Below are positions 1,319-37,908 of a stretch of 64,000 bases of DNA, one piece after another. Source of the DNA: Candidatus Omnitrophota bacterium (GTDB taxonomy: Bacteria > Omnitrophota > Gorgyraeia > Zapsychrales > Zapsychraceae); the NCBI GenBank assembly GCA_020429915.1, contig JAGQKV010000005.1, forward strand, positions 7,125 to 71,124. Direction: 5' to 3'. A program made the position numbers and the translations under genes. Under the pieces are notes generated by a model, which saw only the letters and a list, made by a program, of their open reading frames with translations, searched no databases and had not been told where the DNA came from. Numbering within the stretch: the first letter of the stretch is position 1; each line of letters starts with the position of its first letter.

Positions 1319-1342
1319 CTTGCGTATCTATCCTCGTATCTT

Positions 1343-1498
1343 TAGTGATTAGTGGTTAGCGATTAACAGCAGAGACTGACTTACCCATTCCACTATCACT
1401 TTTTTGTTATGATACAGCCTTACTACTTAATATCTCTTTCGTCACCCTCGCAGCCCAAACCAGTCTCGGATACTAACCGCTAAGAACTAACCACTAGA
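1343..1498. repeat. 10-bp inverted repeat TAGTGGTTAG ... CTAACCACTA flanking the atpD-atpI intergenic spacer
   Basis: tagtgattagtggttagcg at ~1343-1361 and ctaaccgctaagaactaaccactag at ~1474-1498 are reverse complements of each other over the core TAGTGGTTAG. Confidence 0.4.
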
Positions 1499-2111
1499 TC
1501 TCAGCGAGCGCCAGCTCTTTATCAATCACTTTCTTCTTCGCGACCTTACTGACGCCCACTGCATGGGCCTGTTGGTCACCCAAATAAATCCTGATCTTGC
1601 GGATATTTTCCTGACATTCGGGGATCTTGACCTTTTCAAACAGATTCACACGCTGGGTGGTGGTGCGCAGCTCGTGTTCGAGGATGGCAATTTGCTTCTT
1701 CACTACCTCCACTTCGGCAATCATCTTCACGGTCAACCGCAATTCCTCAAGGGACTTGTCGACCCACAGCGGGGTTTCATAAAAATCGTATTCGGCCGTC
1801 TCGTAGCTGATATCCTCGAACACCGGCACCGTGGCCCCGGCGACATTGGTCGTGCTGCACTTAATGTCCTTGGGATTGATCCACGGTTTCAGATCGATTT
1901 CGGCATCGCCCAGCAACCCCGCCCACTTTTTGACCGCACCGTCTTTTTCGTAAAGCGCGGAAAGCCGATGCTCCAAATGTTTGCGCACCTCCATCGTACG
2001 CATCTGTAGCTGCTGCTTCTTCAGCTGCAGCGTCGGCAAATAGCGCTTGAACTGCTTGAGACTGTCTCGTTGGCGCTTGAGTTCACCTTTTGTCAGTTTG
2101 ATTTTCGCCAT
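1494..2111 (-). CDS. atpD: V-type ATP synthase subunit D
   Basis: 205 aa, MAKIKLTKGELKRQRDSLKQFKRYLPTLQLKKQQLQ..., the coiled-coil D-subunit signature. It lies directly downstream of subunit B. Confidence 0.85.
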   Translation of the reverse strand: MAKIKLTKGELKRQRDSLKQFKRYLPTLQLKKQQLQMRTMEVRKHLEHRLSALYEKDGAVKKWAGLLGDAEIDLKPWINPKDIKCSTTNVAGATVPVFEDISYETAEYDFYETPLWVDKSLEELRLTVKMIAEVEVVKKQIAILEHELRTTTQRVNLFEKVKIPECQENIRKIRIYLGDQQAHAVGVSKVAKKKVIDKELALAEI

Positions 2112-2140
2112 ATCTGATACGTGTAGTTATCACCTATTAA

Positions 2141-2285
2141 TCTCGAATATCGAAATCCGAATCTTCGAAGGAAGTTCGAATGACCGAATTACCTAATGCT
2201 CGAATCTCCGGAACGGTTGATTGTTCTGACAATTTGAAGATTAGGTGATTCGATATTCCTTCGAAATTCGATATTCGGATTTCAA
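2141..2285. repeat. Intercistronic palindromic element, copy 1, built from CGAATATCGAA / GAAATCCGAAT / TTCGAAGGAA submotifs
   Basis: The left arm (tctcgaatatcgaaatccgaatcttcgaaggaa) and the right arm (ttccttcgaaattcgatattcggatttc) are imperfect reverse complements about 80 nt apart. Related copies occur at 3633-3772, 8862-9065 and 14455-14512. Confidence 0.6.
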
Positions 2286-2296
2286 AAATCTTCCAG

Positions 2297-3604
2297 CTAC
2301 TTTCTTGCGGCCGCCTTCGGCCAAAACTGATCGATCAGTTTTTGATTCATCCCCGTTTCCGCCGGTTCAAAGCACTCGGCGAGGATGCGCCATCCGAGGT
2401 CGAGGGCGTCTTCCAACGGGATGTTGACGGAGAGGTCCATCAATTCCTTCTCGAACTTCACCCCGTAATTCAATAGTTTCTCATCCCATGAACTCAACTG
2501 GAAACCCATCGATCTCTTCTCCAATACCTCGCGGTAATCCGCGAAGAGCTGGATCATACGGTCCATGATCGCGCGGTGATCGGCACGGGTGTCCTTGTTG
2601 ACCTGCTGTTTCAGACGGCTCAACGAACCGAACGGCTCGATGCGCCCGCCGCGCAGATAAAATTGTCCCTCGGTGATGTAACCGGTGTTATCCGGGATCG
2701 GATGCGTGACGTCATCCCCGGGCATGGTGGTGACCCCGAGGATGGTGATCGAACCGGCGCCGGAGAAGTCGACGGCCTTTTCATAACGCGCGGCGAGCTG
2801 GCTGTAAAGATCGCCCGGATATCCGCGGTTGGACGGGATCTGTTCCATGGTGATCGCGACTTCCTTAAGAGCGTCGGAAAAGTTGGTCATGTCGGTCAAC
2901 AGCGTCAGCACGTTCTTGCCTTCCTGCGCGAATTGCTCGGCCACCGCCAGGCACATGTCCGGGACCAGCAGACATTCCACGGTGGGGTCGGACGCTGTGT
3001 GGATAAACATCACCGAACGCGACAGCGAACCCTGCGCCTCCAGCGTTTCCTTAAACGTCAGGTAATCGTCATATTTCAGACCCATCCCGCCGAGAATGAT
3101 GACATCGACCTCGGCCTGCATCGCGATCCGGGCAAGCAATTCATTGTACGGCTCCCCGGCGATGGAAAAGATCGGCAGTTTCTGCGAAACGACCAGCGTG
3201 TTGAAGACGTCGATCATCGGGATCCCCGTCCGAATCATGTTTTTGGGAACAACGCGTTTGGCCGGATTTACCGACGGCCCGCCGATCTCGATCATATTAT
3301 CGGTCAGTTCGGGCCCCTTGTCGCGGGGGATACCGGCACCGTTGAAGATACGGCCGAGCAGGTCTTCCGAATAGGCGACCTGAATTCCTTTCTTCAAAAA
3401 CCGGACCTTATCGTTGGTCGAGATCCCGCGGCTTCCGGCGAGGACCTGCAGGGAAACCTTGTTGCGGTCCAACCGGATGACCTGGGCCAGCGATGCGCCC
3501 AGCGACGTCTTGATCTCGGCCAGCTCCTTGTAAGCGATATCCTCCGCCTCGACCGTAATTACGTCGCCGACGATTTGCGTGATTTGGCTGTAGACTTTCT
3601 GCAT
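2297..3604 (-). CDS. atpB: V-type ATP synthase subunit B
   Basis: 435 aa, ...[55 protein letters not shown]..., the typical non-catalytic B-subunit nucleotide-binding region. Confidence 0.9.
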
Positions 3605-3632
3605 GACTTGCTCTCCAAGTTATCTCTTATCG

Positions 3633-3772
3633 GAATTTCGAATATCGAATATCGAATATCGAAGGAATATCGAATTCTCGAATCATCAAATCACCGAAAT
3701 TAACGCTTTCGAAGATTCGGGCATTAGACGATTCGATATTCCTTCGAACATTCGAAGATTCGGATTTCGATA
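3633..3772. repeat. Intercistronic palindromic element, copy 2 (three tandem cgaatatcgaa units, then inverted arms)
   Basis: aatttcgaatatcgaatatcgaatatcgaaggaatatcgaattctcgaa ... gattcgatattccttcgaacattcgaagattcggatttcgatatt, lying between the atpA stop and the atpB start. Confidence 0.6.
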
Positions 3773-3773
3773 T

Positions 3774-5552
3774 TTATACAACCGCTGCTTCCTGAGGTTT
3801 TCCCTCCGCTATCTTGTCCTTCAACTTCTTCTCCGTCGCCTTGAACTCATCGCTTTTAAACTCCTGAGAATTCCAGGTCTTGAAGATCTGGATCAGGTCC
3901 TGAAAGTAGCGGCGCGCCTTCTCTTTATTTTGGTACTTGAATTCCTGGTCCAGGATTTCGATGACCACGTCGAAGACATAGATCTGGCGGTCCCGGGCGG
4001 TGGCCTCATCGTTGGGATCGAAGGCGTTCTGCTGCAAATAAACCGCGTCGAAAAACTCGCCCTTCAGATAATCGATAAACTCATCGTTGGACGTCCCTTC
4101 CTCCCCGACGACCTTCATCATCTGGCCGACGCTGTTGCTCTTGCGCAGCATCGCCCGGCTCTTCTCGGCCTTTTCGGAATCAACGAAACTCGGGTACTTG
4201 CTCCAGCTGTCCAGGGGATCGATCGTGGGATAACGGCGCGCGTTGGCGCGGGCCTGGGACAGACCGAGAAAACCGCCGACCACCTTCAACGTCGCCTGCG
4301 TCACCGGCTCTTCGAAGTTTCCGCCGGCCGGCGATACCGCCCCGCCGATGGTGATCGAACCGGTGGTCCCGTCACGGAAGCGGACCAATCCGGCGCGTTC
4401 GTAAAACGCCGCGATCCGCGACTCGAGATAGGCCGGGAAGGCTTCTTCTCCGGGGATTTCTTCCAGACGTCCGGACATCTCGCGCATCGCCTGCGCCCAG
4501 CGCGAGGTGGAATCGGCCAACAGCAGGACATTGAGTCCCATCTGACGGTAATATTCGGCAATGGTCACTCCGGTGTACACGGAAGATTCACGCGCGGCGA
4601 CCGGCATCGAACTGGTGTTGCAGATAATGATAGTGCGTTCCATCAATGTCTTGCCCGTACGCGGATCGGTCAGTTCGGGAAACTCCTCGAGGATCTCGAC
4701 GACCTCACCGGCGCGCTCCCCGCAGGCCGCGACGATCACGATGTCGACTTCGGCGTGGCGGCTGAGCAAATGCTGCAAAACCGTCTTGCCCGCGCCGAAC
4801 GGCCCCGGAGTACAGAAGGTCCCGCCCACCGCGACCGGACAAATCGTGTCGATCAATCGGATCTTGGTGACGAGCGGTTCGACGGGTTTCAGTTTGTCGG
4901 CGTAAACCTTGATCGGCACCTTGACCGGCCAAGTCTGCACCATCTTCACATCATGTTTGCGTCCCTGTTCATCTTTCAGCGTGGCCACGGTCGAGTCGAT
5001 CTTGTGCTTGCCGGCGTCAACGACCTTGATCACTTCAAAATCTCCCTGCCAGTCAAAGGGGACCATGATCTTGTGCTCAAACATATTCTCGGGAACCGTG
5101 CCGATGGTGTCGCCGGCGCGCACCACATGACCGTCTTTGACCTTCGGCGAGAAATCCCACAGATGATCGCCGTCCAGGGCGCGCAAATACTCGCCGCGTT
5201 TCAGGAAGAAGCCGTGTTTCTCCGCGAGCTGCGGCAACGGATTTTGCAGCCCGTCGAAAATCTTGCCGAGCAGACCCGGTCCGAGTTCCACGCTCAGGAG
5301 TTCGTCGGTGAATTCGACTTCGTTGTTCACCTTGATGCCGGCGGTGTCTTCGAACACCTGCAGGTCGGCGGAAGTTCCTTTGACCCGGATCACCTCGGCC
5401 TTCAGCGCTTCTTTGCCGACCCTGACGTATGCCACCTCGTTCTGCTTCACCTTGTCGGTGAACTCAACAGAGACCATGTTCCCGTTGACCCCGACGACTT
5501 TACCCGTACGTTTGCTCTTTGTACTCACTGTCTTCTCCTTATAAGTTGGCAA
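3774..5552 (-). CDS. atpA: V-type ATP synthase catalytic subunit A
   Basis: 592 aa with the Walker A motif GPFGAGKTV and a non-homologous insert region, giving V/A-type A-subunit architecture. Confidence 0.9.
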   Translation of the reverse strand: MPTYKEKTVSTKSKRTGKVVGVNGNMVSVEFTDKVKQNEVAYVRVGKEALKAEVIRVKGTSADLQVFEDTAGIKVNNEVEFTDELLSVELGPGLLGKIFDGLQNPLPQLAEKHGFFLKRGEYLRALDGDHLWDFSPKVKDGHVVRAGDTIGTVPENMFEHKIMVPFDWQGDFEVIKVVDAGKHKIDSTVATLKDEQGRKHDVKMVQTWPVKVPIKVYADKLKPVEPLVTKIRLIDTICPVAVGGTFCTPGPFGAGKTVLQHLLSRHAEVDIVIVAACGERAGEVVEILEEFPELTDPRTGKTLMERTIIICNTSSMPVAARESSVYTGVTIAEYYRQMGLNVLLLADSTSRWAQAMREMSGRLEEIPGEEAFPAYLESRIAAFYERAGLVRFRDGTTGSITIGGAVSPAGGNFEEPVTQATLKVVGGFLGLSQARANARRYPTIDPLDSWSKYPSFVDSEKAEKSRAMLRKSNSVGQMMKVVGEEGTSNDEFIDYLKGEFFDAVYLQQNAFDPNDEATARDRQIYVFDVVIEILDQEFKYQNKEKARRYFQDLIQIFKTWNSQEFKSDEFKATEKKLKDKIAEGKPQEAAVV

Positions 5553-6084
5553 ACATCCCTTCGGGGAAGTCGACCTTTTTCAGCTCTTCGTACTTTTCCC
5601 TTCCCTGAGGGGACGCGATATTGTGGTACCGTTCGACAATCTTCAGTTTGAGTCCGTACAACATAATAAAGGCCGGGGTGTAAAACTCCCCGACCATCAG
5701 ATTTTCGTAGAAATTCCAACGCGCCCGGCTGAGCACCTTGTCCCCTTCCAACGGATCCGCGGCATTGGCCGCGTCCTTGACCAACTGCTGCAACTCGGGA
5801 TTGGCACCGTACGCGCCGCGGGTGACGGTCTGTGGATCGCGATTGAGTTTAAGCGCGCGATACACGGCGACATGGTTATTCAAACTTTGTTCAAATTCAA
5901 AAACCTGCTTGAGGACCGGGCTGGCGGTCGCGATGTGCTCTGCGCCGAGCAGCGCGACGAGCAGGCGGGCGTCGCCGCGCGTCATCTGCCGCCGGGCGTC
6001 GTCGAGAAATTCGGCAACCGTAAAGGGCAATTTGCCTGAGAAGGTGAGGACGGGTAAACTTGCTCCGAAGTAATAGTAGGTCAT
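5539..6084 (-). CDS. DUF2764-like protein of Bacteroidetes-type V-ATPase operons
   Basis: 181 aa, located between subunit E and subunit A, exactly where the DUF2764 gene sits in Bacteroidetes and Chlorobi V-ATPase operons. It overlaps the atpA start by 14 nt. The assignment rests on position and size rather than a diagnostic motif. Confidence 0.55.
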   Translation of the reverse strand: MTYYYFGASLPVLTFSGKLPFTVAEFLDDARRQMTRGDARLLVALLGAEHIATASPVLKQVFEFEQSLNNHVAVYRALKLNRDPQTVTRGAYGANPELQQLVKDAANAADPLEGDKVLSRARWNFYENLMVGEFYTPAFIMLYGLKLKIVERYHNIASPQGREKYEELKKVDFPEGMFANL

Positions 6085-6112
6085 GGTTTCGTTGGCTACA
6101 GAACCGCGCGCC

Positions 6113-6724
6113 CTAGTGGACCGCGCTCTTGAGAATATCCGCCACCTGGGCGTTCAGGTATGTGGCCAGGAATTGCCCCAGGCTCTCGTCACTGAAATCA
6201 AAACTGGATTTACCGCCGTCGTAACTGATGGTGAACCCGCCGGCGACTTCATCGGAACCTTCCAGGGCCACGCCTTTTTTCACGGTATCCTGCAGTTTCT
6301 TCAGGATCCCGGCCTTTAACTCCTCCGCGGCCCGCGGATTGACTTCGATCACCACGCCGTGGTCCCTGGACTCTTCCACGGTCTTGGCCACCACGTCGGT
6401 AATGATCTCCGCCAGCCGGTCGCCGGTCAGCGCTCCGGAGACTTCCGTCGTAATCAGTTTTTGCAGCGTTTTTTCGATATGCTTGCGCAATGCCAGCAGC
6501 ATGTCGCGGGACGCCTGCTGCAGCGCCGTCCTGGCCGCTACTTCCATCTTCTTCACTTCATCCTTGGCTTGCAGCACAATCGTCTCGGCTTCCTGCTCGG
6601 CCTCGCGGATAATCTGAGCGGCCTTCTCCTGGGCCTCTTTTTCGATCCGGCCGGCCTCGTCCTGCGCCTGCTGAATACCGTCATTTTTGATTTTATCGAT
6701 AAGTTCCTGGATTTGTGAAGACAT
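6113..6724 (-). CDS. atpE: V-type ATP synthase subunit E
   Basis: 203 aa, a highly charged coiled-coil N-terminus (MSSQIQELIDKIKNDGIQQAQDEAGRIEKEAQEKAAQIIREAEQEAE...) with a globular C-terminus. It is the first gene of the operon. Confidence 0.8.
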   Translation of the reverse strand: MSSQIQELIDKIKNDGIQQAQDEAGRIEKEAQEKAAQIIREAEQEAETIVLQAKDEVKKMEVAARTALQQASRDMLLALRKHIEKTLQKLITTEVSGALTGDRLAEIITDVVAKTVEESRDHGVVIEVNPRAAEELKAGILKKLQDTVKKGVALEGSDEVAGGFTISYDGGKSSFDFSDESLGQFLATYLNAQVADILKSAVH

Positions 6725-6764
6725 CGTCGGCTCCCGAAATCATTTAATTGTTAATTCTTTAACG

Positions 6765-6792
6765 ATTATATGTAAAAGATTAATGTTCTTAA
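6765..6792 (-). promoter_or_regulatory. sigma70-like promoter of the V-ATPase operon
   Basis: On the minus strand, -35 TTAAGA (rc of 6787-6792), a 16-nt spacer and -10 TATAAT (rc of 6765-6770). A GGGAG RBS lies 8 nt upstream of the atpE ATG. The 75-bp spacer after pyrF is AT-rich. Confidence 0.45.
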
Positions 6793-6799
6793 TATACAC

Positions 6800-7555
6800 C
6801 TACGCGGTCGAAATGACCATTTGTTTTAAGATGTCTCTGGCGGCCTGCGCCGGATCCGCGGCTTTAACAATCGGCCGGCCTACGACCAGGAAATCACTTC
6901 CCGCGGCCGTAGCGTCGGCCGGCGTCGCCACCCTTTTTTGATCGTCGGTGGCGGCCCCAGCCGGACGGATCCCCGGGGTCACAATAACAAAATCTTCCCC
7001 GCACGCCTCACGGATCATGGCGGCTTCCTGAACGGAGGCAACCACCCCGTCCAATCCGGATTCCTGCGCCAAACGGGCTCTTTCCAATACGAGGTCACGT
7101 ATGTTATCCGTTTTGCTATCACTTGTCAAGACCGTAATCCCCACCAGCAAAGTCTTTGTAACCCCATTGATTTGAGCCTGTTTGGCCGCTGCTTCCGCCG
7201 CCCGGGCAAGCATCTCCGGCCCGCCCTGGGTGTGCAGGGTACACAATAACAGGTGATCGGTGACCGGCACGGGATTCTGCCGCTCATCCACCGCTTCGTG
7301 TACCGGCCGGGCCAGGTCCACAGCGGCGGTGACGGCATTGGCCACGGTGTTGGGGATATCGTGAAACTTCAGATCCAAAAAGACCTGCTTGCCCTTGGCC
7401 AGCACGTAGCGGACGATCATCGGGCCGCAGGCGGTAAACAACTGCGATCCGACCTTGTAAATGCCGACCGTGTCTTGCAGCCGGTCGATCAGCTGGCTGG
7501 CCTCCTCAAAGGTCTCCACATCCAGCGCGACAATCAGTTTGGCTTCCCTGCCCAT
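6800..7555 (-). CDS. pyrF: Orotidine 5'-phosphate decarboxylase
   Basis: 251 aa; LDLKFHDIPNT and the conserved Lys/Asp active-site context. Confidence 0.9.
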   Translation of the reverse strand: MGREAKLIVALDVETFEEASQLIDRLQDTVGIYKVGSQLFTACGPMIVRYVLAKGKQVFLDLKFHDIPNTVANAVTAAVDLARPVHEAVDERQNPVPVTDHLLLCTLHTQGGPEMLARAAEAAAKQAQINGVTKTLLVGITVLTSDSKTDNIRDLVLERARLAQESGLDGVVASVQEAAMIREACGEDFVIVTPGIRPAGAATDDQKRVATPADATAAGSDFLVVGRPIVKAADPAQAARDILKQMVISTA

Positions 7556-7556
7556 G

Positions 7557-8474
7557 TTATTTTCTTTTAACCTTTCCTCTTAATTTGCGGATGTCGTTGA
7601 TGTCGTGCCGCCGCATGTAATCGACGATCCCGTTGAGCACGTCCAGCGGCGCGCGCGGATTGACGAAATTCATAGTGCCCACGGCGACCATGGTTGCGCC
7701 GGCCAAAATAAACTGCAAGGCGTCAGAGGCATCGGCAATGCCGCCCATGGCGATAATCGGGATCTTCACCTTCTGCGCCGTCTGATACACCATATTCACG
7801 GCCACCGGCCGGATCGCCGGGCCGCTTAAACCCCCGGTAAAATTACCCAACACCGAACGCTGCTTTTCGACATCTATCACCATCCCGGTCAGCGTGTTGA
7901 TCAGGCTCAACCCGTCGGCACCGGCGTCTTCGGCCGCCTGAGCGATCACGGTGATGTCGGTGACGTTCGGCGCGAGCTTGGCGATGACCGGGACCGCGGC
8001 GATCTTCTTGACCTTTTTGATGATCCGCGCCGTGGCCTTGGGGTCCTGCGCCACCAGGGTCTTGTGGCCGAGGTTCGGGCACGACAGGTTCAACTCGAGC
8101 GCGACAAAACCGCCGGCCGCGGTGAACTTTTCGGCGAGGATTTCGAATTCTTTATCGGTGTGACCGAGCACGCTGATGATCAGCGGCACGCCGACCTTTT
8201 GAAAACCGGGCAGCTTGTCGGCGATAAAACCGTCGGCACCGGGATTCTCGATGCCGATCGCGTTGAGCATGCCCGACGGCGTCTCCACGATACGCACGGG
8301 CGGATTGCCTTCCTGCGCGGGCAGCGTGACCGTCTTCGGCACGATTGCGCCGAGCTTCTTGACCTCCTCAAGGTCGTAATACTTTTCCGCGTGACCGAAT
8401 GTCCCGGAGGCCACCGTCACCGGATTGGCGAAGGCGGCCTTGCCGATTTTGACTTTTAATTTGAGATCGTCCAT
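7557..8474 (-). CDS. pyrD: Dihydroorotate dehydrogenase catalytic subunit (class 1B)
   Basis: Homology begins at the internal Met MDDLKLKVKIGKAAFANPV.... The motifs are those of PyrD 1B (GTF, ELNLSCPN, IIAMGGI). The ORF continues upstream to 8657, but that extension overlaps tauE and looks non-coding. Confidence 0.85.
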   Translation of the reverse strand: MDDLKLKVKIGKAAFANPVTVASGTFGHAEKYYDLEEVKKLGAIVPKTVTLPAQEGNPPVRIVETPSGMLNAIGIENPGADGFIADKLPGFQKVGVPLIISVLGHTDKEFEILAEKFTAAGGFVALELNLSCPNLGHKTLVAQDPKATARIIKKVKKIAAVPVIAKLAPNVTDITVIAQAAEDAGADGLSLINTLTGMVIDVEKQRSVLGNFTGGLSGPAIRPVAVNMVYQTAQKVKIPIIAMGGIADASDALQFILAGATMVAVGTMNFVNPRAPLDVLNGIVDYMRRHDINDIRKLRGKVKRK

Positions 8475-8476
8475 AG

Positions 8477-8836
8477 TTATTTCAAAAGCACCATTTTCAG
8501 TCCGATGAGGACCAGCGCCACACCGAATATCCGTTTGAGGACCGCCGCCGGCAGATACTGAACCAGGTGCGCGCCCGCGAATGATCCGATCACGAACCCG
8601 ATGATCATCAGTCCCGTGATATTCAACTGCAGATTGCCCGCCGCGTAGTAGCGCCACGCCGCGGCGAGAAAGACCGGGACCGTCAACAATCCGATCACCG
8701 TGCCCTGCGCCTGATGTTGAGTTAAGCCCCCCGCCATCACCAGCAGCGGAACCATGACGGCGCCGCCTCCGAGGCCGAGCGCACCGCCTACGAATCCGCC
8801 CGCGAGGCCGATCAGCATGTATGTGATTATTGGCAT
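8477..8836 (-). CDS. TauE/SafE (DUF81) family half-size membrane protein
   Basis: 119 aa with four predicted TM helices and Gly-rich helices (GLAGGFVGGALGLGGGAVMVPLL), typical of sulfite-exporter TauE-family half units. Confidence 0.65.
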   Translation of the reverse strand: MPIITYMLIGLAGGFVGGALGLGGGAVMVPLLVMAGGLTQHQAQGTVIGLLTVPVFLAAAWRYYAAGNLQLNITGLMIIGFVIGSFAGAHLVQYLPAAVLKRIFGVALVLIGLKMVLLK

Positions 8837-8861
8837 AAATCTCTCCGTGTTGATGCGCTTA

Positions 8862-9065
8862 TAAATATCGAAATCCGAATATCGAATTTTCGAAGCGGTT
8901 CGACTTCGCTCACCGTCCCAAGCGGAGTCGAGGGAGCATATCGAATCACCTAAATTCGAAGGACCGAAACAATTCCGAATTTCAAATTCATAAAATTCCT
9001 ATAACCAGTGTTTCGAACATTCGGTGATTTGAGAATTCGATATTCCTTCGATATTCGAAAATAAT
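8862..9065. repeat. Intercistronic palindromic element, copy 3 (largest copy)
   Basis: aaatatcgaaatccgaatatcgaattttcgaag ... gagaattcgatattccttcgatattcgaaaat. Each arm carries two GAATATCGAA units, and the arms are reverse complements of each other. Confidence 0.6.
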
Positions 9066-9077
9066 ACCCACCCTTGC

Positions 9078-9854
9078 TCAATCAAATATGATCTCTTGCA
9101 AGTCAAACACCGGGCCGTCGTAGCAAACCGTACGAAAACCCTTGGTCGTGCGTATGGAGCAGCCCAGACACGCGCCCAAGGCGCAGGCCATGATCTCCTC
9201 GCACGCCGCCTGCGCGCGCAGTTTGTGCTTCTTGGTGAATTGCTGCACCGCGTGCATCATGACGTGCGGACCGCAGGTATAGACCATCGTCGTCTGCGGA
9301 TTCAGGTCGATTTTGTCAAAATGCTCGCTGACAAATCCTTTAACGCCCGCCGTCCCGTCATTGGTGGCCACATGAATTTCACAGCCGTTGGCCTTGAATT
9401 CCTTCATTTCATACACATGCTCGCCGCTGCGGCCGCCGTACAGCAAGACCAGTTGCAGCCCGCGCTTTTTGAGTTCATCGGTCAGGATCAAAAACGGCGC
9501 CACACCGATGCCGCCGGCGACCATCACCACCTGTTTGACTCCCTCCGGCGGATGAGTGAACGGCGTGCCCACCGGGCCCAGGACGTCAATGCGGTCGCCT
9601 TTCTTCCATTGCGACATGATCCCGGTGCCGGGCCCGACGACCTCGTAAAAGACCTCAATATGTTTTTGAGCGCGGTAAACGCTGAACGGCCGGCGGAAGA
9701 AGGGCTCATAGCCGTGCGCGTTGGTACGGATATGTACGAACTGGCCGGCCCGCACGTGATCGCGGATAGCCGGCGCGTCAAAGCACAGGCGATGAAACGC
9801 CGGGCAGAGTTTTTCGTTGGAAACGACCGTGTATATGTTTTGCAGTTCGGGCAT
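9078..9854 (-). CDS. pyrK: Dihydroorotate dehydrogenase electron-transfer subunit
   Basis: Start at the internal Met MPELQNIYTVVSNEKL.... There is an FAD/NAD-binding fold and a C-terminal 2Fe-2S Cys cluster (CEEIMACALGACLGC). Upstream ORF codons overlap mutM. Confidence 0.85.
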   Translation of the reverse strand: MPELQNIYTVVSNEKLCPAFHRLCFDAPAIRDHVRAGQFVHIRTNAHGYEPFFRRPFSVYRAQKHIEVFYEVVGPGTGIMSQWKKGDRIDVLGPVGTPFTHPPEGVKQVVMVAGGIGVAPFLILTDELKKRGLQLVLLYGGRSGEHVYEMKEFKANGCEIHVATNDGTAGVKGFVSEHFDKIDLNPQTTMVYTCGPHVMMHAVQQFTKKHKLRAQAACEEIMACALGACLGCSIRTTKGFRTVCYDGPVFDLQEIIFD

Positions 9855-9859
9855 ACGGG

Positions 9860-10684
9860 TTACTTTTGACAGTGTTTGCAATAAAACGTGCTGCGCTGGG
9901 CCTGCACGATACGGATGATCGGCTGTGAACATTCCGGGCAATCTTCGTCCTGCTTACCGTATACCCGAATACGGTCCATAAACCGCCCTTTACGTCCCTG
10001 CGCGTCGCGGTAGTTGCGCATCGAGGTGCCGCGCAATCGGATCGACTCTTCCAGGATCGAAACCGTATGGCGATGAACGTCTTCGATCTGCCGAAGGGTC
10101 AGCTGCCGGGCCCGTTTCTTGGGATTCACCTTGGCCGAGAACAGGATTTCCGACGCATAGATATTGCCGATGCCCGCTATAAACTGCTGATTCATCAGCA
10201 AGGGTTTGATCGGCGAGGACCGCTTCTTGAGTTCCCGGGTGAGCCAGGCGACACTGAAGTCTTTTCCGAGCGGCTCCGGACCGATGGTCGTCAGGTAGGG
10301 AATGTCTTCCAGACGGTCAACCAGGTATAACCAGCCGAATAATCGCTGGTCATTATAATTTAAAAAGTCCCCGTTGGAAAGCCGGAAGATGACTTTGGTC
10401 TCCCCCGAACCGCCGTTTTCCCGCAAATCCGGGCCGTAAACAAAGTAGCCGGTCATCTTCACCTGGACAAAGAGATACTTCCCGCGGTCCAGGGTTATGA
10501 TGATTCCTTTGCCGCGGCGCTCGACCGCGCGGAAGGCGGCGCCGGTCATTTCACGGACAAAGCGGCCGGTGTCAAAATCGGCGATGACCCGCCGGTCGAA
10601 CACCCGCACCTCCTCAACCGTCAACCCGGTGATCTTGCGGCGCAGGCCGCGCGCCATGGTTTCCACTTCGGGTAGTTCCGGCAT
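9860..10684 (-). CDS. mutM: Formamidopyrimidine-DNA glycosylase
   Basis: Starts MPELPEVET, the catalytic N-terminal Pro of Fpg. The C-terminal zinc finger is CPECSQPI...CKHCQ. Its start overlaps the stop of the upstream gene (TAATG). Confidence 0.85.
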   Translation of the reverse strand: MPELPEVETMARGLRRKITGLTVEEVRVFDRRVIADFDTGRFVREMTGAAFRAVERRGKGIIITLDRGKYLFVQVKMTGYFVYGPDLRENGGSGETKVIFRLSNGDFLNYNDQRLFGWLYLVDRLEDIPYLTTIGPEPLGKDFSVAWLTRELKKRSSPIKPLLMNQQFIAGIGNIYASEILFSAKVNPKKRARQLTLRQIEDVHRHTVSILEESIRLRGTSMRNYRDAQGRKGRFMDRIRVYGKQDEDCPECSQPIIRIVQAQRSTFYCKHCQK

Positions 10685-12396
10685 TACATCCCCTCCAAAT
10701 CCCGCTCGGCTGCGGCGCTCCATTCCGGTTGTCCTTGCCGGATTGCCAACTCACGGGTCGCCAGCAGATGTCGCCGCGCGCTTTCTTTGTCGCCCAACGC
10801 AAAAAAGACCTGCGCTATGTGGTAATGCGCGGTCAGGTCGTCCGGATGAAACTCGAGATACCGCCGGTATGCCGCCGCGGACCGTTCGTTTTCTCCCAAT
10901 TCAAAGGCCATATAGGCCTGATTGTAATACGCCGGAACCAAGGCCGGGTCGGCCTTCAGTGCGCGTTCGTTCAAGGCAACGGCCTCGTCAAGAAGGCCCG
11001 CCTCCCAACGGAACCGCGCCAGATTGTTCAGGGCGTGGGCGAAATCCGGTTTCAGCCGGATCGCCTCCTCCAGCGCCTGCACGCCTTCCCGGCGCATGCC
11101 TTGGCGCAGATACGCGTCCGATAATCCCAGGTACGCCGACGGAAACCTCGGCTCCTTGGCGACCAAATCCGTGTAATGATCAATCTCGTTGATCCACACA
11201 TAATTCCGTGTGTGCGCCGCGAGGCCCAGTACGATCACCAGCACCGCCGCCGTCACCCGAAACATCATCTCCCGACGGATCAGCATCGACCAGACATAGC
11301 CGGCCGAAAGACACAACCCGGCCATCGAGAGGTACAGCCAGTTTTCATAAATCAGATTACGCAGGCCGAAGCTCACCCCGACGAATTCCACACTCTTGGT
11401 GATAAAAAACCAACCTAAACCGTAAGCGATCAACGGCCGCTTACGCCGGTTCGCGACTGCCGTCCAAATCAATACGCCGAGTACGCCCACCGCCATCAGA
11501 AAACGCGGCTCAAGGATACTGTGCGTAATCGGATAATAATAATCCGCCCGCAATCCCACCGGCGCGACAAACAAGCGCAGGTAGGTGACCAGCACGTTGA
11601 CCTCGGTCAGCAGCACCTTCCATTCAAACATGTTGATCCCCATCAGGTGCTGAAAATTGATCGTCGCCGACGACTTGGACTGAAAGAATATCACCGGAAA
11701 AATCAACGCGGCCAGCATGTACGCACTCAGCCATGGCATTGCGCCCCGTTTCTCGGCCAGCACTGGCCGGACGATCAGCCATTCGCATAAAACCAGCGTC
11801 GCCCCGGCGGTGATAATAATCTCCTTGGTAATAAAACCGAGCAGCAGCGGAACAAAGACCGTAGCCAACCAGAACGGACATTTTTCCGACCGGCCTTTCA
11901 TATAGAGAATATGCGCCAGCAGGTACCATGCCGTGACCATCACCGTTCCGCGCTGGGCAATAAAACTCACCGCCTGCGTCTGCACCGGATGGCAAAGAAA
12001 AATCCCCATCGCCAGCCAAGCAATCTTGCAGGGGGACAACGGTGCGTCAGGCCGACGCAAATTCACCAGCCGAACCGTCTCCCGGCAGAACACAAAAATC
12101 AGCGCGGCGTTGACCATGTGAAAAAACAGACTGAAGAGGTGATAGCCGTGCGGAGTCAGGCCGTGCAGGTGGTAATTGAGCATGAACGTCAGGCCAACCA
12201 AAAAGCGGGCATTGAACGAGGACCACAGGTCATGATAACGCAGCTGCGTGATGACAGGATTATGCGCGATAAAACGGAAGTCGTCGGAGATGAATTCTCC
12301 GGGAAGGACATGAACATAGCAGGCGAGCCCGGTCAGCAAAATGAACAACAGGGCCGGCCACGGCAGCATCAACGAAACTTTGTCAACGGTCTTCAT
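10684..12396 (-). CDS. Polytopic membrane protein with C-terminal TPR repeats (PMT/TMTC-like glycosyltransferase family candidate)
   Basis: 570 aa with about 11 TM helices, followed by TPR-like repeats (AYLGLSDAYLRQG..., AHALNNLARFRWEAG..., AYYNQAYMAFELG...). Confidence 0.65.
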   Translation of the reverse strand: MKTVDKVSLMLPWPALLFILLTGLACYVHVLPGEFISDDFRFIAHNPVITQLRYHDLWSSFNARFLVGLTFMLNYHLHGLTPHGYHLFSLFFHMVNAALIFVFCRETVRLVNLRRPDAPLSPCKIAWLAMGIFLCHPVQTQAVSFIAQRGTVMVTAWYLLAHILYMKGRSEKCPFWLATVFVPLLLGFITKEIIITAGATLVLCEWLIVRPVLAEKRGAMPWLSAYMLAALIFPVIFFQSKSSATINFQHLMGINMFEWKVLLTEVNVLVTYLRLFVAPVGLRADYYYPITHSILEPRFLMAVGVLGVLIWTAVANRRKRPLIAYGLGWFFITKSVEFVGVSFGLRNLIYENWLYLSMAGLCLSAGYVWSMLIRREMMFRVTAAVLVIVLGLAAHTRNYVWINEIDHYTDLVAKEPRFPSAYLGLSDAYLRQGMRREGVQALEEAIRLKPDFAHALNNLARFRWEAGLLDEAVALNERALKADPALVPAYYNQAYMAFELGENERSAAAYRRYLEFHPDDLTAHYHIAQVFFALGDKESARRHLLATRELAIRQGQPEWSAAAERDLEGM

Positions 12397-12866
12397 ACCT
12401 CATCAAGATCGGCGATCAATTCCTGCAGGATCGCCTTCAGGTTATGCGGCCCGGCGCAGGGAATCATGCCTTCCCGCCCCCAACCGCCCAGGTCCACAAT
12501 CGGGCGTTTGTAAACCAGTCCGTAGGAAATTTCGGAGGATGTTCCATGACTACCGGGCAAGGCGATGATCACGTCCGCGCTGGCGGCCACACAGGCATTG
12601 CGGGCGAAACCAATCGTCAACGGCAGCGCGATGTCGATATATTCATTGGCATCGGCCTTGTCCTTGCCCGGCAACAGGCCGATAGTGAGACCGCCGGCTG
12701 CCTTGGCGCCCCCGGAAGCCGCCTTCATACTCCCCATGAGTCCTCCGCAGACTAGAACAGCCCCCACCTCGGCCACAATACGACCGACATCTGTTGCCAA
12801 ACGCTCCACCGCCTCATCAATTTCTGACCCGCCGATAACCGATACCGTGATCATTTGTTTACGCAT
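12393..12866 (-). CDS. LOG/TIGR00725-family Rossmann-fold nucleotide-binding protein
   Basis: 157 aa with VSVIGGSEIDE...VLVCGGLMGSMKAASGGA...ALPGSHGT, characteristic of LOG-like lysine-decarboxylase-family proteins. Confidence 0.7.
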   Translation of the reverse strand: MRKQMITVSVIGGSEIDEAVERLATDVGRIVAEVGAVLVCGGLMGSMKAASGGAKAAGGLTIGLLPGKDKADANEYIDIALPLTIGFARNACVAASADVIIALPGSHGTSSEISYGLVYKRPIVDLGGWGREGMIPCAGPHNLKAILQELIADLDEV

Positions 12867-13034
12867 AAGTTATTCACACCCTCTCTGTTTGACAACTTCG
12901 TGGCGTACGCATCAGGCCACAATCGGCCTGAAACGCAAGATTTACTCCCCGAAAAAGGCAGTTATCCATTAATTCACTCCACATTGATACAATTTATACC
13001 AATTTTTTGGGATGTCGTGATCTCGTAAGTTTTC

Positions 13035-13063
13035 CACAACCCACAAGAAAACTGTGGATTGTG
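13035..13063. other. Near-perfect palindrome CACAAcCCACA-N7-TGTGGaTTGTG in the pyrC-LOG spacer
   Basis: An 11-bp arm with one mismatch and a 7-nt loop. No U tract follows on either strand. It may be an operator or an RNA stem-loop. Confidence 0.3.
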
Positions 13064-13113
13064 ACTATATGTAGTATGACTTATCCGCCCGCGGACAGTG
13101 TTTTTTTGCCTCG

Positions 13114-14415
13114 CTAGCGGGCCGCGACCAGCTTCAATTTGTCCTGATACACGACTCTTCCGCCGAAAATTGTAGTCTGGACCCGTCCGGTCAGTTTTGT
13201 GCCGAAAAACGGGCTGTTTTTGGACTTGGACGCCGTATCTTCGGGCGTTACTTCCCACTCCAAGTCCGGATCGATCAGGGTGATATCGGCATCGTATCCC
13301 TCGGCAATAACCCCTTTGCTTTCCATCCCGGCGATACGGGCCTGGGAAGTGGACATTTTGTCAACAACCTGTTCCCAGTTCAGGATCCCGGGTTTGACCA
13401 GTTCGGTGATCGTCAGGGCCAACGAGGTTTCGAGGCCGATGATCCCGAACGGGGCCTGTTCAAAACTGACTTCCTTGTCCTCTTTGGAGTGCGGGGCGTG
13501 ATCGGTAACGATCAGGTCGATGGTACCGTCCTTCAGACCTTCCTTAATCGCCTCCACGTCATCTGCGGTGCGCAGCGGCGGGTTCATCTTGGTATGCGTG
13601 TCGAAACTGCGGACCGCATCCTCAGTCAAGGCGAAGTGATGCGGACAGGCCTCGGCCGTGACCGGGATCCCCTGTTTTTTGGCCTGCCGGATGAGTTCGA
13701 CCGACCGCCGGCAGCTCATGTGCGCGAAGTGGACGCGTCCGCCCAGAAAATTTACCAGCTCGATATCCCGGCTGACGATGATGCTTTCGGAAATGTACGG
13801 GTCGGGTTTGATGCCGAGCATGGTCGAGGTCACCCCCTCGTTCATCGCTCCCCCGGCGCTGATCAGCGGATCCTCACAATGCTGGATCAGCAGGATGTCC
13901 ACCATTTTGGCATACTCGATGGCCCGGCGCATGAGCTGACTGTTGACGACGCTTTTGCCGTCATCGGACAAGGCCAGACAGCCGGCCTTCTTGAGATCAA
14001 ACATATCCACCAGCTCCTGGTCTTTCTGGCCGCGCGTGATCGATCCGATCGGCACGATATGACACAATCCCAAGCGCCGGGATTCGTTCAGGATCCCCTC
14101 GACGATCATCGCGTTGTCGATGACCGGACGTGTGTTGGGCATACACATCATACTGGTGAAGCCGCCCTTGACCGCGGCCTGCGAACCGCTTTCGAGGTCC
14201 TCCTTATATTCCTGGCCGGGGGTGCGCAAATGCACGTGAATGTCGATCAACCCCGGCAAGACCAGCAGCCCCTCGGCGTCGATTGTCTTGCCCGCTTTGA
14301 CCTTGAGCGACGGCGCAATTTGCTGAATTTGACCGCGGTCGATAAAGATATCCTGTTTCTGTTTTTCTTTCTTATCGGCGTTGACGATCTGAGCGTTCTT
14401 GATGAGAAGTGACAT
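13114..14415 (-). CDS. pyrC: Dihydroorotase
   Basis: 433 aa; the metal-binding HVH motif (LIDIHVHLRTPG), a cyclic amidohydrolase fold and a conserved D in the C-terminal third. Confidence 0.9.
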   Translation of the reverse strand: MSLLIKNAQIVNADKKEKQKQDIFIDRGQIQQIAPSLKVKAGKTIDAEGLLVLPGLIDIHVHLRTPGQEYKEDLESGSQAAVKGGFTSMMCMPNTRPVIDNAMIVEGILNESRRLGLCHIVPIGSITRGQKDQELVDMFDLKKAGCLALSDDGKSVVNSQLMRRAIEYAKMVDILLIQHCEDPLISAGGAMNEGVTSTMLGIKPDPYISESIIVSRDIELVNFLGGRVHFAHMSCRRSVELIRQAKKQGIPVTAEACPHHFALTEDAVRSFDTHTKMNPPLRTADDVEAIKEGLKDGTIDLIVTDHAPHSKEDKEVSFEQAPFGIIGLETSLALTITELVKPGILNWEQVVDKMSTSQARIAGMESKGVIAEGYDADITLIDPDLEWEVTPEDTASKSKNSPFFGTKLTGRVQTTIFGGRVVYQDKLKLVAAR

Positions 14416-14454
14416 ATCTTTTTCCTAAATTAGGTGGTCATTTTTGCGAAACAA

Positions 14455-14512
14455 ATTTGGAAATCCGAATATCGAATCATCGAATTCTCGAACATTCGAT
14501 ATTCGAGATCGG
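14455..14512. repeat. Intercistronic palindromic element, copy 4 (perfect 11-bp stem CGAATATCGAA / TTCGATATTCG)
   Basis: ggaaatccgaatatcgaatcatcgaattctcgaacattcgatattcgagatcgg, lying between the pyrB stop and the pyrC start. Confidence 0.6.
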
Positions 14513-14519
14513 TTCCAAG

Positions 14520-16062
<1,543 letters not shown>

Positions 16063-16094
16063 CTATGGAAATTGTGGTCAATGCTGTCATGTGA

Positions 16095-16130
16095 TCATCC
16101 TTACCGGTCTCACGGGACCGGATTTAAAGG
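16095..16130 (-). promoter_or_regulatory. PyrR-binding-loop-like RNA element
   Basis: The minus-strand RNA reads AAAUCCGGUCCCGUGAGACCGGUAAGGAU. It carries the UCC.G.GAG loop and a downstream AAGGA, as in the PyrR binding loops of Bacillus-type pyr leaders, and lies upstream of the terminator hairpin. Confidence 0.5.
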
Positions 16131-16170
16131 CGACTTACTTGCCCAAGAATACCACCGCGGCGTGATCTTG

Positions 16171-19029: not shown

Positions 19030-19085
19030 TATTGCCTCCAGATGATGCTCGTGAAATCACGAAAGTTGTCTTGAAATAGTCTCAA

Positions 19086-19114
19086 AGTATATATGAAAAC
19101 CGTTAAAATATCAA
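19086..19114 (-). promoter_or_regulatory. sigma70-like promoter upstream of rpmA
   Basis: On the minus strand, -35 TTGATA (rc of 19109-19114), a 17-nt spacer and -10 TATACT (rc of 19086-19091). A GGAGG RBS lies 7 nt before the rpmA ATG. Confidence 0.4.
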
Positions 19115-19150
19115 ACAAAATCCTACGCCCCCATAGGGGGAGCGTAGGAT
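19105..19150 (-). terminator. Rho-independent terminator after the dsbA-like gene
   Basis: The minus-strand RNA reads AUCCUACGCUCCCCCUAUGGGGGCGUAGGAUUUUGUUUGAUAUUUU: a GC-rich 11-12 bp hairpin (19122-19149) followed by a U-rich tract. Confidence 0.65.
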
Positions 19151-19176
19151 TCGGAATCAGTCGGAAAGAACCGCTC

Positions 19177-29161: not shown

Positions 29162-29875
29162 TCATGCCTGGCCCAAACTCTTCAAATATTTTACCACATC
29201 CCTGGGTTTATCCGAACCAAAGAAATAGCTGGCCGTGGCCAAAACGTTGACCCCCGCCTTTACCGCCTCCGGGGCCGTCAATTCATTCACCCCACCGTCA
29301 ATAGCGATATTTCCCTTATAATTCTCCCGCAGATCGATGATTTTGGCCAAAACCGAGGGATTGAATTTCTGCTTGGCAAAGCCCGGATTGACGGACATCA
29401 CCAGAACCCCGTCCAGGTCGGTCATCAGCCCCCCCAGGCACAGGGGGGTACCCGGATTGAGTACCATAACTGCTTGGGCCCCTTTGTTTTTGATACGTAT
29501 CACGTCCTGCCGGGCGCGCTCGATATCGATTTCGTCGACCTCCTTGGGATACTCCCCGTACTGCCGGCATCCCGGCCGACGTTCACCGTAACACTCCGCG
29601 TGGATTGAGATAATGTTCGCGCCGGAGTCGATAAAACTGTCCGTGTAGGCCCAGGGGTTCTCGATCATGAGATGGGCCTCGATGGGAAGCTTGGTGACGG
29701 GACGGATAGCCTCGATGATGACCTGGCCGATGGTGATATTGGGCACAAAGTGCCCGTCCATGACATCCACGTGAATCATGTCCACGCCGGCGTCTTCGCA
29801 TTTTTTGATTTCATCCCCAAGTTTGGTGAAGTCCGCGCAGAGGATACTGACGGATACTTTTGTTTCGGTAGGCAT
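29162..29875 (-). CDS. rpe: Ribulose-phosphate 3-epimerase (with ~20-aa insertion)
   Basis: Start at the internal Met MPTETKVSVSILCADF.... The fold is a TIM barrel (DVMDGHFVPN, HLM, NPGT), with an inserted CYGERRPGCRQYGEYPKEVDEIDIER segment. Confidence 0.85.
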   Translation of the reverse strand: MPTETKVSVSILCADFTKLGDEIKKCEDAGVDMIHVDVMDGHFVPNITIGQVIIEAIRPVTKLPIEAHLMIENPWAYTDSFIDSGANIISIHAECYGERRPGCRQYGEYPKEVDEIDIERARQDVIRIKNKGAQAVMVLNPGTPLCLGGLMTDLDGVLVMSVNPGFAKQKFNPSVLAKIIDLRENYKGNIAIDGGVNELTAPEAVKAGVNVLATASYFFGSDKPRDVVKYLKSLGQA

Positions 29876-29969
29876 GTAGACTCCAGAGCAAGAATTTTGT
29901 GGACAAGCGGGCAAGCTAATTCGAATGCCGGAACGCTTCGCCTTTGCTTGCTCTCGCTTGCGCAAGAGA

Positions 29970-37706: not shown

Positions 37707-37791
37707 GCAGTAATGTCCGGTGATATCGGCTCATTTTCGGCCGATTCGCCTCGACGCCCGGCCGGGCGAATACGCTCCGGAATTGGACATC

Positions 37792-37903
37792 ATGTCGGGT
37801 TAAGTCCGCCCAAAAAGGTGTTGGGTTAAGCCCTATATTTAGGGGTACGGAGCCGGCCGGATGTCGGGTTAAGTCCGCACAAATGGATGTTGGGTTAAGT
37901 CCC
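37792..37903. repeat. Tandem ~43-bp direct repeat x2, each with two GGGTTAAG(T/C)CC half-sites
   Basis: atgtcgggttaagtccgcccaaaaaggtgttgggttaagccc (37792-37833) and atgtcgggttaagtccgcacaaatggatgttgggttaagtccc (37861-37903), lying immediately 3' of the giant-gene stop and about 90-200 bp upstream of the carA -35. Confidence 0.6.
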
Positions 37904-37908
37904 TCCCG

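Follow-up and report, generated by a model that had tools for sequence, protein, structure and literature searches.

Four AT-rich spacers in a 64-kb stretch of DNA from Candidatus Omnitrophota (the whole stretch is called the window below) make up a real repeat family whose members fold as hairpins. The spacers separate cistrons of a V-type ATPase operon and of a pyrimidine operon, and comparison with relatives showed that they are recent, lineage-specific insertions. Relatives of these hairpins were found in many phyla, within a 23S rRNA gene and on both sides of genes for PF05635 proteins. Based on these results, we propose that the window spacers are miniature relatives, lacking an open reading frame (ORF), of a selfish hairpin cassette of the intervening sequence (IVS) type. 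We consider this proposal probable, though far from certain.

Copy 1 is a hairpin with heptamer arms in the atpB/atpD spacer (2141..2285, minus strand; dG -49.3 kcal/mol, z -4.75; the same unit applies below). Copy 2 is a hairpin in the atpA/atpB spacer (3633..3774, minus strand; dG -57.0, z -5.88), copy 3 is a compound hairpin in the spacer between pyrK and a TauE-like gene (8862..9065, minus strand; dG -66.1, z -2.99), and copy 4 is a short hairpin in the pyrB/pyrC spacer (14436..14512, minus strand; dG -23.5, z -3.21). An earlier note on this DNA had described four AT-rich copies at these places with inverted arms made of shared words. This description held: spacer GC was ~0.37-0.45, compared with ~0.57 in the surrounding sequence, and the eight arms of the four copies aligned to a single consensus, AATATCGAAATCCGAATATCGAATnTCGAAGGAATATCGAAT... 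Pfam likewise confirmed the flanking genes that it had named, all of them on the minus strand within co-directional operons. The note had given the arms as 11-30 nucleotides (nt); the inverted arms are real, but at 18-41 nt they are longer, and they are also less perfect (as in copy 2, with 41 nt at 78%). The elements are 58-204 nt in size and there is no ORF inside any window copy.

Each copy has its own details. The left arm of copy 1 holds CGAATGACCGAA at about 2176-2190. One end of copy 2 consists of three tandem CGAATAT heptamers, and the opposite end abuts the atpA stop codon (TAA, 3774-3776). The threefold repeat had been reported as three tandem cgaatatcgaa units; the repeat stands, but the unit is the heptamer, which had been seen as three overlapping 11-mers. 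Copy 3 has an outer CGAAT stem around two inner sub-hairpins, one of which is GC-rich. The core of copy 4 is a perfect 11-bp stem, CGAATATCGAA-N18-TTCGATATTCG, with arms at 14466-14476 and 14495-14505; its arms are thus as first described, but its loop is 18 nt and not 17.

Motif counts and density scans over the whole window set these four places apart. There were 16 words within one mismatch of CGAATATCGAA, where 1.97 were expected, and none of 100 shuffles reached 16; 14 of the 16 words fall inside the four spacers. The motif is therefore above chance in the window. Exactly five exact occurrences of GAAATCCGAAT were present, every one of them in the four spacers. Within the elements, CGAA/TTCG words reached a density of 97 per kb, compared with 8.8 per kb outside them, and exactly the same four places stood out in a scan for CGAAT/TCGAA words. 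A repeat finder recovered the four-copy family in direct as well as in inverted orientation. From one CGAA word to the next the distance is mostly 7-8 nt; thus, the building block is a degenerate heptamer, CGAA+NNN. The minus-strand RNAs of all four copies were predicted to fold as long hairpins that are stable relative to dinucleotide shuffles (the z values given above), in line with the fold that the earlier note expected, and perfectly paired runs in the predicted stems reach ~17 bp. The layout is inverted and not direct, the spacing is irregular and there are no cas genes in the window, so the note was also right that these are not CRISPR.

Comparison with relatives indicated how the spacers arose. 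The AtpB protein of the window recurs across many metagenome assemblies, including one 2.0-Mb contig. In near-identical strains (L001-L003, 99.85-100% identity) the elements are identical to those of the window. We also compared three more distant relatives (L123, L125 and L126), whose AtpB is 89-90% identical, and a closer one, L127 (AtpB 96%, DNA about 80-83%). The three distant relatives keep the gene order pyrC...fpg-pyrK-tauE-pyrD-pyrF-atpE-...-atpA-atpB-atpD-atpI-atpK. The atpA/atpB spacer is 169 nt in the window and 15-37 nt in the relatives (38 nt in L127); the atpB/atpD spacer is 185 nt compared with 3-6 nt; the pyrK/tauE spacer is 241 nt compared with 12-19 nt; and the atpD/atpI spacer is 175 nt compared with 13-30 nt in two relatives. 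These short spacers and the presence or absence of the elements argue that the elements are lineage-specific insertions into formerly tight junctions. Because the elements are absent from the same operons of the relatives, a conserved operator or a regulatory RNA shared by the two operons, which had been offered as one explanation, is ruled out. When filled and empty sites were compared, no direct repeat that could be a target-site duplication was found around any of the four copies. Nor did the window copies have sharp termini; their outer ends are ragged and the number of heptamers is variable.

The same junctions hold hairpins of other sequence families. The atpD/atpI spacer of the window (1335-1490, minus strand) contains a second kind of palindrome, with arms of TAGTGGT/TAGTTCT/TAGCGGT heptamers. 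Its terminal arms pair, and the z value of the whole spacer is only -0.76. Its architecture is like that of the CGAAT copies and its sequence family is different. A homologous TAGCGGT-heptamer hairpin lies at the same atpD/atpI site of L127 (3355-3522) and is lacking in two farther relatives. At the atpB/atpD site, where the window has copy 1, L127 has a hairpin of a third heptamer family (2592-2736; GTAAGTA GTAGGAA GTAAGAA GTAGGAA and complement). L127 lacks copy 2, and ATTCGAATATCC in its 38-nt atpA/atpB spacer can be aligned with the promoter-distal end of that copy.

Relatives of the CGAAT hairpins were found by a scan of one genome per GTDB species with the word GAAATCCGAATN{1,2}TCGAA, which is present in five of the eight window arms. 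At least 119 loci were obtained from 596 Gb searched. Chance alone could give hundreds of matches in 596 Gb, so it is the context of a locus that decides its membership in the family. In most of these loci the word is embedded in a much longer common sequence. The family hairpins are ~130-200 nt long with nearly invariant outer arms, and follow the consensus 5'-AAATCCGAAATCCGAATATCGAAATCCGAAACAAATTCAAAT..CAAATGACCAAAAC-[variable loop]-GTTTTGGTCATTTGAATTT..GGATTTGTTTCGGATTTCGTGCTTCGGATTTCGGATTT-3'. A hidden Markov model (HMM) built from 56 arms found 168 significant arms in 97 of the 119 listed loci. In the 42 complete elements there is a conserved asymmetry, in which ATAT in the 5' arm faces GTGC in the 3' arm. 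Alignment of 30 sequences showed next to no variation in the outer ~40 nt and none at all in the CGAA/UUCG pairs (RNAalifold).

Among the matches listed, the hosts are mostly Planctomycetota, Verrucomicrobiota, Desulfobacterota, Patescibacteria (Saccharibacteria, Berkelbacteria, Peribacteria), Nitrospirota and Omnitrophota; Lentisphaerota/Kiritimatiellia, Acidobacteriota, WOR-1/WOR-3, Chloroflexota and others are also represented. Almost all are metagenome-assembled genomes, with contig GC of 0.36-0.64, and some of the records are long-read chromosomes. The arm HMM gave zero matches in 737 kb of unrelated metagenome loci and none in 89 kb of DNA from the relatives compared above. In viral contigs, the scan word gave 37 loci, of which only 2-3 were family-like and the rest were almost all chance matches in coding sequence; thus, phages are no obvious vector. 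No match was found in a plasmid collection by blastn with a cross-phylum element or with copy 2. A metagenome scan with the window-specific word TCGAAGGAATATCGAAT gave 105 loci, three of them repeat-like, and two of the loci (L169 and L189) are the same sequence. Rfam, which had been suggested as a check, matched no family to the elements: the only hit at the gathering threshold in the whole window was a tRNA-Leu, there was nothing credible at E<=10 in 1400-15600, and 12 cross-phylum loci gave only rRNA and tRNA matches. A literature search with sequence words of the element returned no relevant paper, and searches by keyword yielded general reviews, the TAACTGA heptamer paper and the Coxiella IVS paper, but no description of this family. 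Relative to flanking ORFs, 26 of the ATAT/GTGC elements are antisense and 11 are sense; these counts come from crude ORF calls and are too weak to build on. The copies in rRNA genes are all in sense orientation.

The rRNA copies come from a Saccharibacteria locus (L043), in which Rfam places family elements inside the 23S rRNA gene. Alignment to E. coli rrlH put CGAAAT hairpins after E. coli positions about 130 and 539. By this alignment, these sites correspond to the regions of helix 9 and helix 25, both of them classical IVS sites (PMC4990558). The value of about 130 is only approximate, because the first insertion block is 485 nt long and two hairpins seem to be merged in it. The gene carries at least five hairpin insertions (L043 3425-6545), including another CGAAAT-type hairpin near its 3' end and GCGAGAA-heptamer hairpins after about 651 and 1711. 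Several of the insertions are bracketed by small CACATC...GATGTG hairpins.

A second link to IVSs is the gene that the arms can enclose. In two loci (L099 and L109) the arms are ~500 nt apart and enclose an ORF of 124-132 amino acids (aa), which matched PF05635, '23S rRNA-intervening sequence protein' (E 1.7e-11 and 6.1e-11), and TIGR02436, 'four helix bundle protein'. When this ORF was used as a protein query, at least 7,992 homologues were obtained, and many of their contigs are very short. We examined the DNA around six of these homologues together with L099 and L109; because the six were chosen by protein alone, they are independent of the DNA word. In all eight contexts, the PF05635 gene lies in sense orientation between co-directional cistrons, and the spacers of 45-160 nt on its sides are CGAAAT-type arms. 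The gene stands between accB and accC, between DUF58 and BatA (in two organisms), between parts of glutamate synthase, in a Bacteroidetes locus, within a sensor-kinase pair, between PALP and dapB, and in L099. More broadly, the arm HMM matched both sides of the PF05635 gene in 16 of 26 protein-search loci (32 arms in 66 kb). No ORF other than PF05635 was found between arms. Hairpins without the ORF have an inner-arm motif, CAAATGACC(A/G)AAAC, that corresponds to the start and first codons of the ORFs (ATG ACC GAA, Met-Thr-Glu). Thus, the ORF-less hairpins seem to have arisen from the ORF-bearing cassette by deletion, in the way that miniature inverted-repeat transposable elements (MITEs) derive from insertion sequences. 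Downstream of the cassette in L294/L295 (1691-2482), dapB was called as two parts, DapB_N and DapB_C, split at an in-frame TAG, and two independent assemblies agree in this pattern.

Like this cross-phylum family, the window copies are built on a heptamer plan, form long hairpins and occupy an intercistronic niche. The two also have GAAATCCGAATATCGAA words of 16-17 nt in common, and nhmmer related them at E values of 1e-6 to 5e-3. Three further motifs, which lay outside any selection, were also found in the window: CGAATGACCGAA in the left arm of copy 1, and CGAAACAAAT and GGTCATTT beside copy 4. The motif in copy 1 is identical to the ORF start (ATG ACC GAA) of L288 and L294, and in the fragment GGTCATTTTTGCGAAACAAATTTGG, which adjoins copy 4, there are two motifs known from the inner arms of the cross-phylum family. 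As a subfamily, the window copies have diverged: they contain a GGAAT unit, and each of their two arms is of the ATAT type. Judging by these words and motifs, common descent of the window subfamily with the cross-phylum family is likely, with real room for doubt.

Several points weigh against our proposal. The homology would rest on short AT-rich words and a shared architecture, and the nhmmer signal is partly circular because the scan word was taken from the window. The 64-kb window contains no PF05635 gene, no RNase III gene and no transposase, and the elements show neither target-site duplication nor sharp termini. The PF05635 ORF was present in only 3 of the 119 listed DNA-word loci, so most copies are miniature, and all eight PF05635 contexts represent a single close subfamily (>=68% identity to the query). 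The architecture also recurs in other heptamer families (TAGCGGT, GTAGGAA, GCGAGAA), and these were not tied to PF05635 in this analysis. Finally, because the CGAA/UUCG pairs are invariant, there is no covariation signal, which speaks neither for nor against selection on RNA structure.

The main rival to our proposal is that the elements are classical MITEs, whose arms would be terminal inverted repeats used in trans by a transposase encoded elsewhere, with the intercistronic sites being harmless insertions that survived. The earlier note had offered a dispersed element of this or a similar kind as one of its readings, and much of that idea has stood: the elements are small, they have inverted arms, they occur in several copies and belong to a multi-copy family, and their presence varies between relatives. 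MITEs inside operons are known, and like our elements they are non-coding and can leave the operon intact; Chunjie of Geobacter uraniireducens is reportedly such an operon-inserted MITE. One deltaproteobacterial metagenome-assembled genome (MAG) points in the same direction. There, the hairpin is the core of a ~240-nt repeat with conserved non-palindromic flanks (L090 2700-2960 and L098 1565-1825), and TATAAGAC lies on both sides of one copy (L090) as a possible 8-bp target duplication. What has not stood is the machinery that defines such elements. The outer ends of the window copies are ragged, the heptamer number varies, and none of the four has a target duplication. There is no transposase in the window, and clustering of the genes neighbouring the 119 listed loci gave no recurrent protein family, transposase-like or other. 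PF05635, the sole ORF seen between arms, is not known to be a transposase, and no transposase-bearing parent of the family was seen in the window or at these loci. Fixed sites at the tips of rRNA helices would also be atypical of cut-and-paste elements. We therefore regard a classical MITE as unlikely, although it comes closest among the rivals. Eukaryotic foldback transposons, which have long inverted arms of short tandem repeats, are far larger and depend on a transposase; the resemblance is an architectural analogy only.

A second possibility is that the hairpins arose locally, by slippage of heptamers in AT-rich spacers and template switching that produced palindromes, with the likeness between genomes being convergent. 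Among long simple repeats in prokaryotes, those with a heptanucleotide unit are reportedly the most common (Mrazek et al. 2007, as summarised in PMC4679880). Heptamer units dominate our elements, their counts vary at the ends, and several unrelated heptamer families have the same architecture. The short atpA/atpB spacer of L127, with the ATTCGAATATCC that aligns with the end of copy 2, could be read as a 'seed'. Against this, three features are conserved across phyla, namely the succession of heptamer variants, the asymmetry of ATAT and GTGC arms, and the inner motif CAAATGACC, or ORF remnant, which argues for copying from a common source and not for independent slippage. It would also be hard to obtain four or five insertions of 60-200 nt together in one lineage whose relatives have spacers of 3-37 nt. 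Thus, we think that local origin is quite improbable. The cyanobacterial short tandemly repeated repetitive (STRR) sequences and the TAACTGA repeats of Beggiatoaceae, Cyanobacteria and Bacteroidetes offer a parallel, as they have a 7-nt unit and lie in intergenic DNA near start codons, and the TAACTGA type is one heptamer common to distant phyla with no known transfer mechanism (PMC4679880). Those repeats are direct tandem arrays, whereas here degenerate heptamers form two inverted arms that are tied to a specific gene family.

Selection by the host for a cis-acting RNA is less probable still. Here, the element would be a stabiliser, a processing site or a protein-binding site that tunes the stoichiometry of the ATPase and Pyr proteins. 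Its location between cistrons on the transcribed strand and its stable stems would suit this role, and repetitive extragenic palindromic (REP) elements and intra-operon stem-loops do shape differential mRNA decay. However, the elements are absent from the same operons in four relatives and have no Rfam match, and the same sequence occurs in unrelated operons and rRNA across phyla with no covariation. Some copies may have been co-opted secondarily by the host. Specific regulatory identities fared no better. The stems are AT-rich and in none of the four copies is there a U tract 3' of the CGAAT stem, so these hairpins are not terminators. The genome uses ordinary terminators at operon ends. At 16000-16170, directly upstream of pyrR, a GC-rich hairpin is followed by U8, and is probably a PyrR-type attenuator or terminator; at 19030-19176, a textbook intrinsic terminator lies 3' of the L27 gene. 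We considered whether the copies in the pyr operon are PyrR attenuators and rejected this, because the ATPase operon carries the same element and the real leader terminator is at 16000-16170. That CsrA, Hfq, Rho or cold-shock proteins might bind the heptamers is speculation only.

A REP or REPIN (a REP doublet forming a hairpin) mobilised by a RAYT (REP-associated tyrosine transposase, of the Y1 HUH type) can be all but set aside. Such palindromes are extragenic, multi-copy and found within operons, where, like the bacterial interspersed mosaic elements (BIMEs) of Proteobacteria, they form RNA hairpins and can stabilise upstream mRNA. Our elements are AT-rich and 58-204 nt long with heptamer-array arms, not GC-rich stems of 20-40 nt, they have no conserved 5' GTAG, and there is no RAYT-like ORF in the window or recurrent near the 119 listed loci. 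An integron attC identity was rejected, as no R''/R' core sites (RYYYAAC / GTTRRRY) were seen at the ends when these were read by eye, the flanks are syntenic housekeeping genes and the window has no integrase.

We return to our proposal that the window spacers are ORF-less relatives of an IVS-type cassette. IVSs of 23S rRNA resemble the family in being AT-rich stem-loops with inverted repeats, in a sporadic distribution that suggests horizontal transfer, and in an optional ORF for a ~120-aa four-helix-bundle protein in the loop, and members of the family lie at helix 9/25 (L043). They differ in that the window copies and most family members are in mRNA intercistronic spacers, not at the tips of rRNA helices 9, 25 or 45, and in that the arms here are CGAA+NNN arrays that are near-identical across phyla; the likeness is drawn by architecture, site and ORF.

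The first part of our model is the cassette itself. A full-length member would consist of two long inverted CGAA+NNN arrays around a PF05635/TIGR02436 gene of ~120 codons. Most copies would have lost the gene and become hairpins of 60-200 nt, and in this Omnitrophota lineage such ORF-less copies would have inserted between cistrons of the V-ATPase and pyrimidine operons.

The second part concerns the fate of the RNA. When co-transcribed with the operon, the copies would form stems of double-stranded RNA that are long but imperfect. RNase III is the enzyme that excises IVSs in Salmonella, Leptospira, alphaproteobacteria and Coxiella (PMC4990558), and the window stems resemble these; by analogy, the window hairpins are probably cut as well. 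A cut by RNase III would split the polycistronic RNA and leave half of the stem at each new end. The element would therefore survive only where a broken or longer RNA does no harm, at the tips of rRNA helices and in intercistronic spacers. We believe that the apparent intercistronic preference would thus be mainly a survival filter, possibly together with a targeting mechanism. It is plausible that an effect on RNA processing or stability is a consequence of insertion.

The third part concerns movement. The PF05635 protein is a homopentamer related to Avd, an accessory protein of diversity-generating retroelements (DGRs) that is needed for retrohoming (PMC4990558, PMC10053308). Because of this relationship, it is conceivable, as speculation, that the elements move with the help of RNA or of reverse transcriptase. 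A wider hypothesis would treat the hairpins and the PF05635 cassettes as one cross-phylum mobile element of 'dispensable RNA', which spreads at the RNA level or with the help of reverse transcriptase. A pentameric Avd-like protein that binds the heptamer arrays would be its mobility or maintenance factor, the rRNA IVSs would be the subset that was noticed first, and the TAGCGGT, GTAGGAA and GCGAGAA families would be sister lineages. We put this wider hypothesis forward tentatively, as it has little more than an outside chance of being right in full.

Much of the groundwork is already known, namely rRNA IVSs, the optional S23p/PF05635 ORF, MITEs and REPs in operons, and heptamers shared across phyla, such as TAACTGA (PMC4679880). 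Relative to Rfam and the searchable literature, what is new is a sequence-conserved, cross-phylum hairpin family with heptamer-array arms, which occupies both rRNA IVS sites and intercistronic spacers, brackets PF05635 genes and consists mostly of ORF-less miniatures. Knowledge of IVSs in 23S rRNA dates back to about 1990, and where they come from, how they move and what the small ORF does are still unexplained (PMC4990558). If our proposal is correct, IVS-like elements are widespread outside rRNA, between housekeeping cistrons of many mostly uncultured phyla, and they usually lack the ORF. There would be a genomic context for PF05635 proteins, which are related to the DGR accessory protein Avd (PMC10053308), and the movement of IVSs would become testable from filled and empty sites. 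A large share of the unexplained AT-rich intercistronic spacers in MAGs would be accounted for. V-ATPase and pyrimidine transcripts would carry long double-stranded RNA stems that probably uncouple or re-tune their cistrons. As regards annotation, these hairpins give rise to spurious small ORFs and to contig breaks.

The host operons were annotated with Pfam, and all of the following genes are on the minus strand. The V-type ATPase genes encode subunit D (1494-2111), subunit B (2297-3604) and subunit A (3774-5552). The pyrimidine genes are pyrD (7557-8657, with a true start that is probably later), pyrK (9078-9941), pyrC (13114-14415) and pyrB (14520-15455), and PyrR was also confirmed in this set. 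The Shine-Dalgarno sequences of the downstream genes lie outside the elements, for instance GGAGAG before atpB and before tauE. The TauE-like gene (8477-8836) encodes 119 aa. A half-length TauE/SafE-like gene of this size lies between pyrK and pyrD in all Omnitrophota relatives examined (for example, L123 4979-5338 and L125 4935-5294), and it is an unusual member of a pyrimidine operon.

Three further features of the window lie away from these operons. A ribulose-phosphate 3-epimerase ORF of 267 aa (29162-29965) matched a Pfam profile of 198 positions in two segments that do not adjoin; this suggests that its N terminus is extended, that it has an internal insertion, or both. Giant genes are typical of Omnitrophota, and one open reading frame of 8,645 codons occupies 37909-63846 on the minus strand. 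In the spacer between this ORF and carA (37735-37908), there are four direct copies of a ~17-nt sequence (GGACTTAACCCRACAYC).

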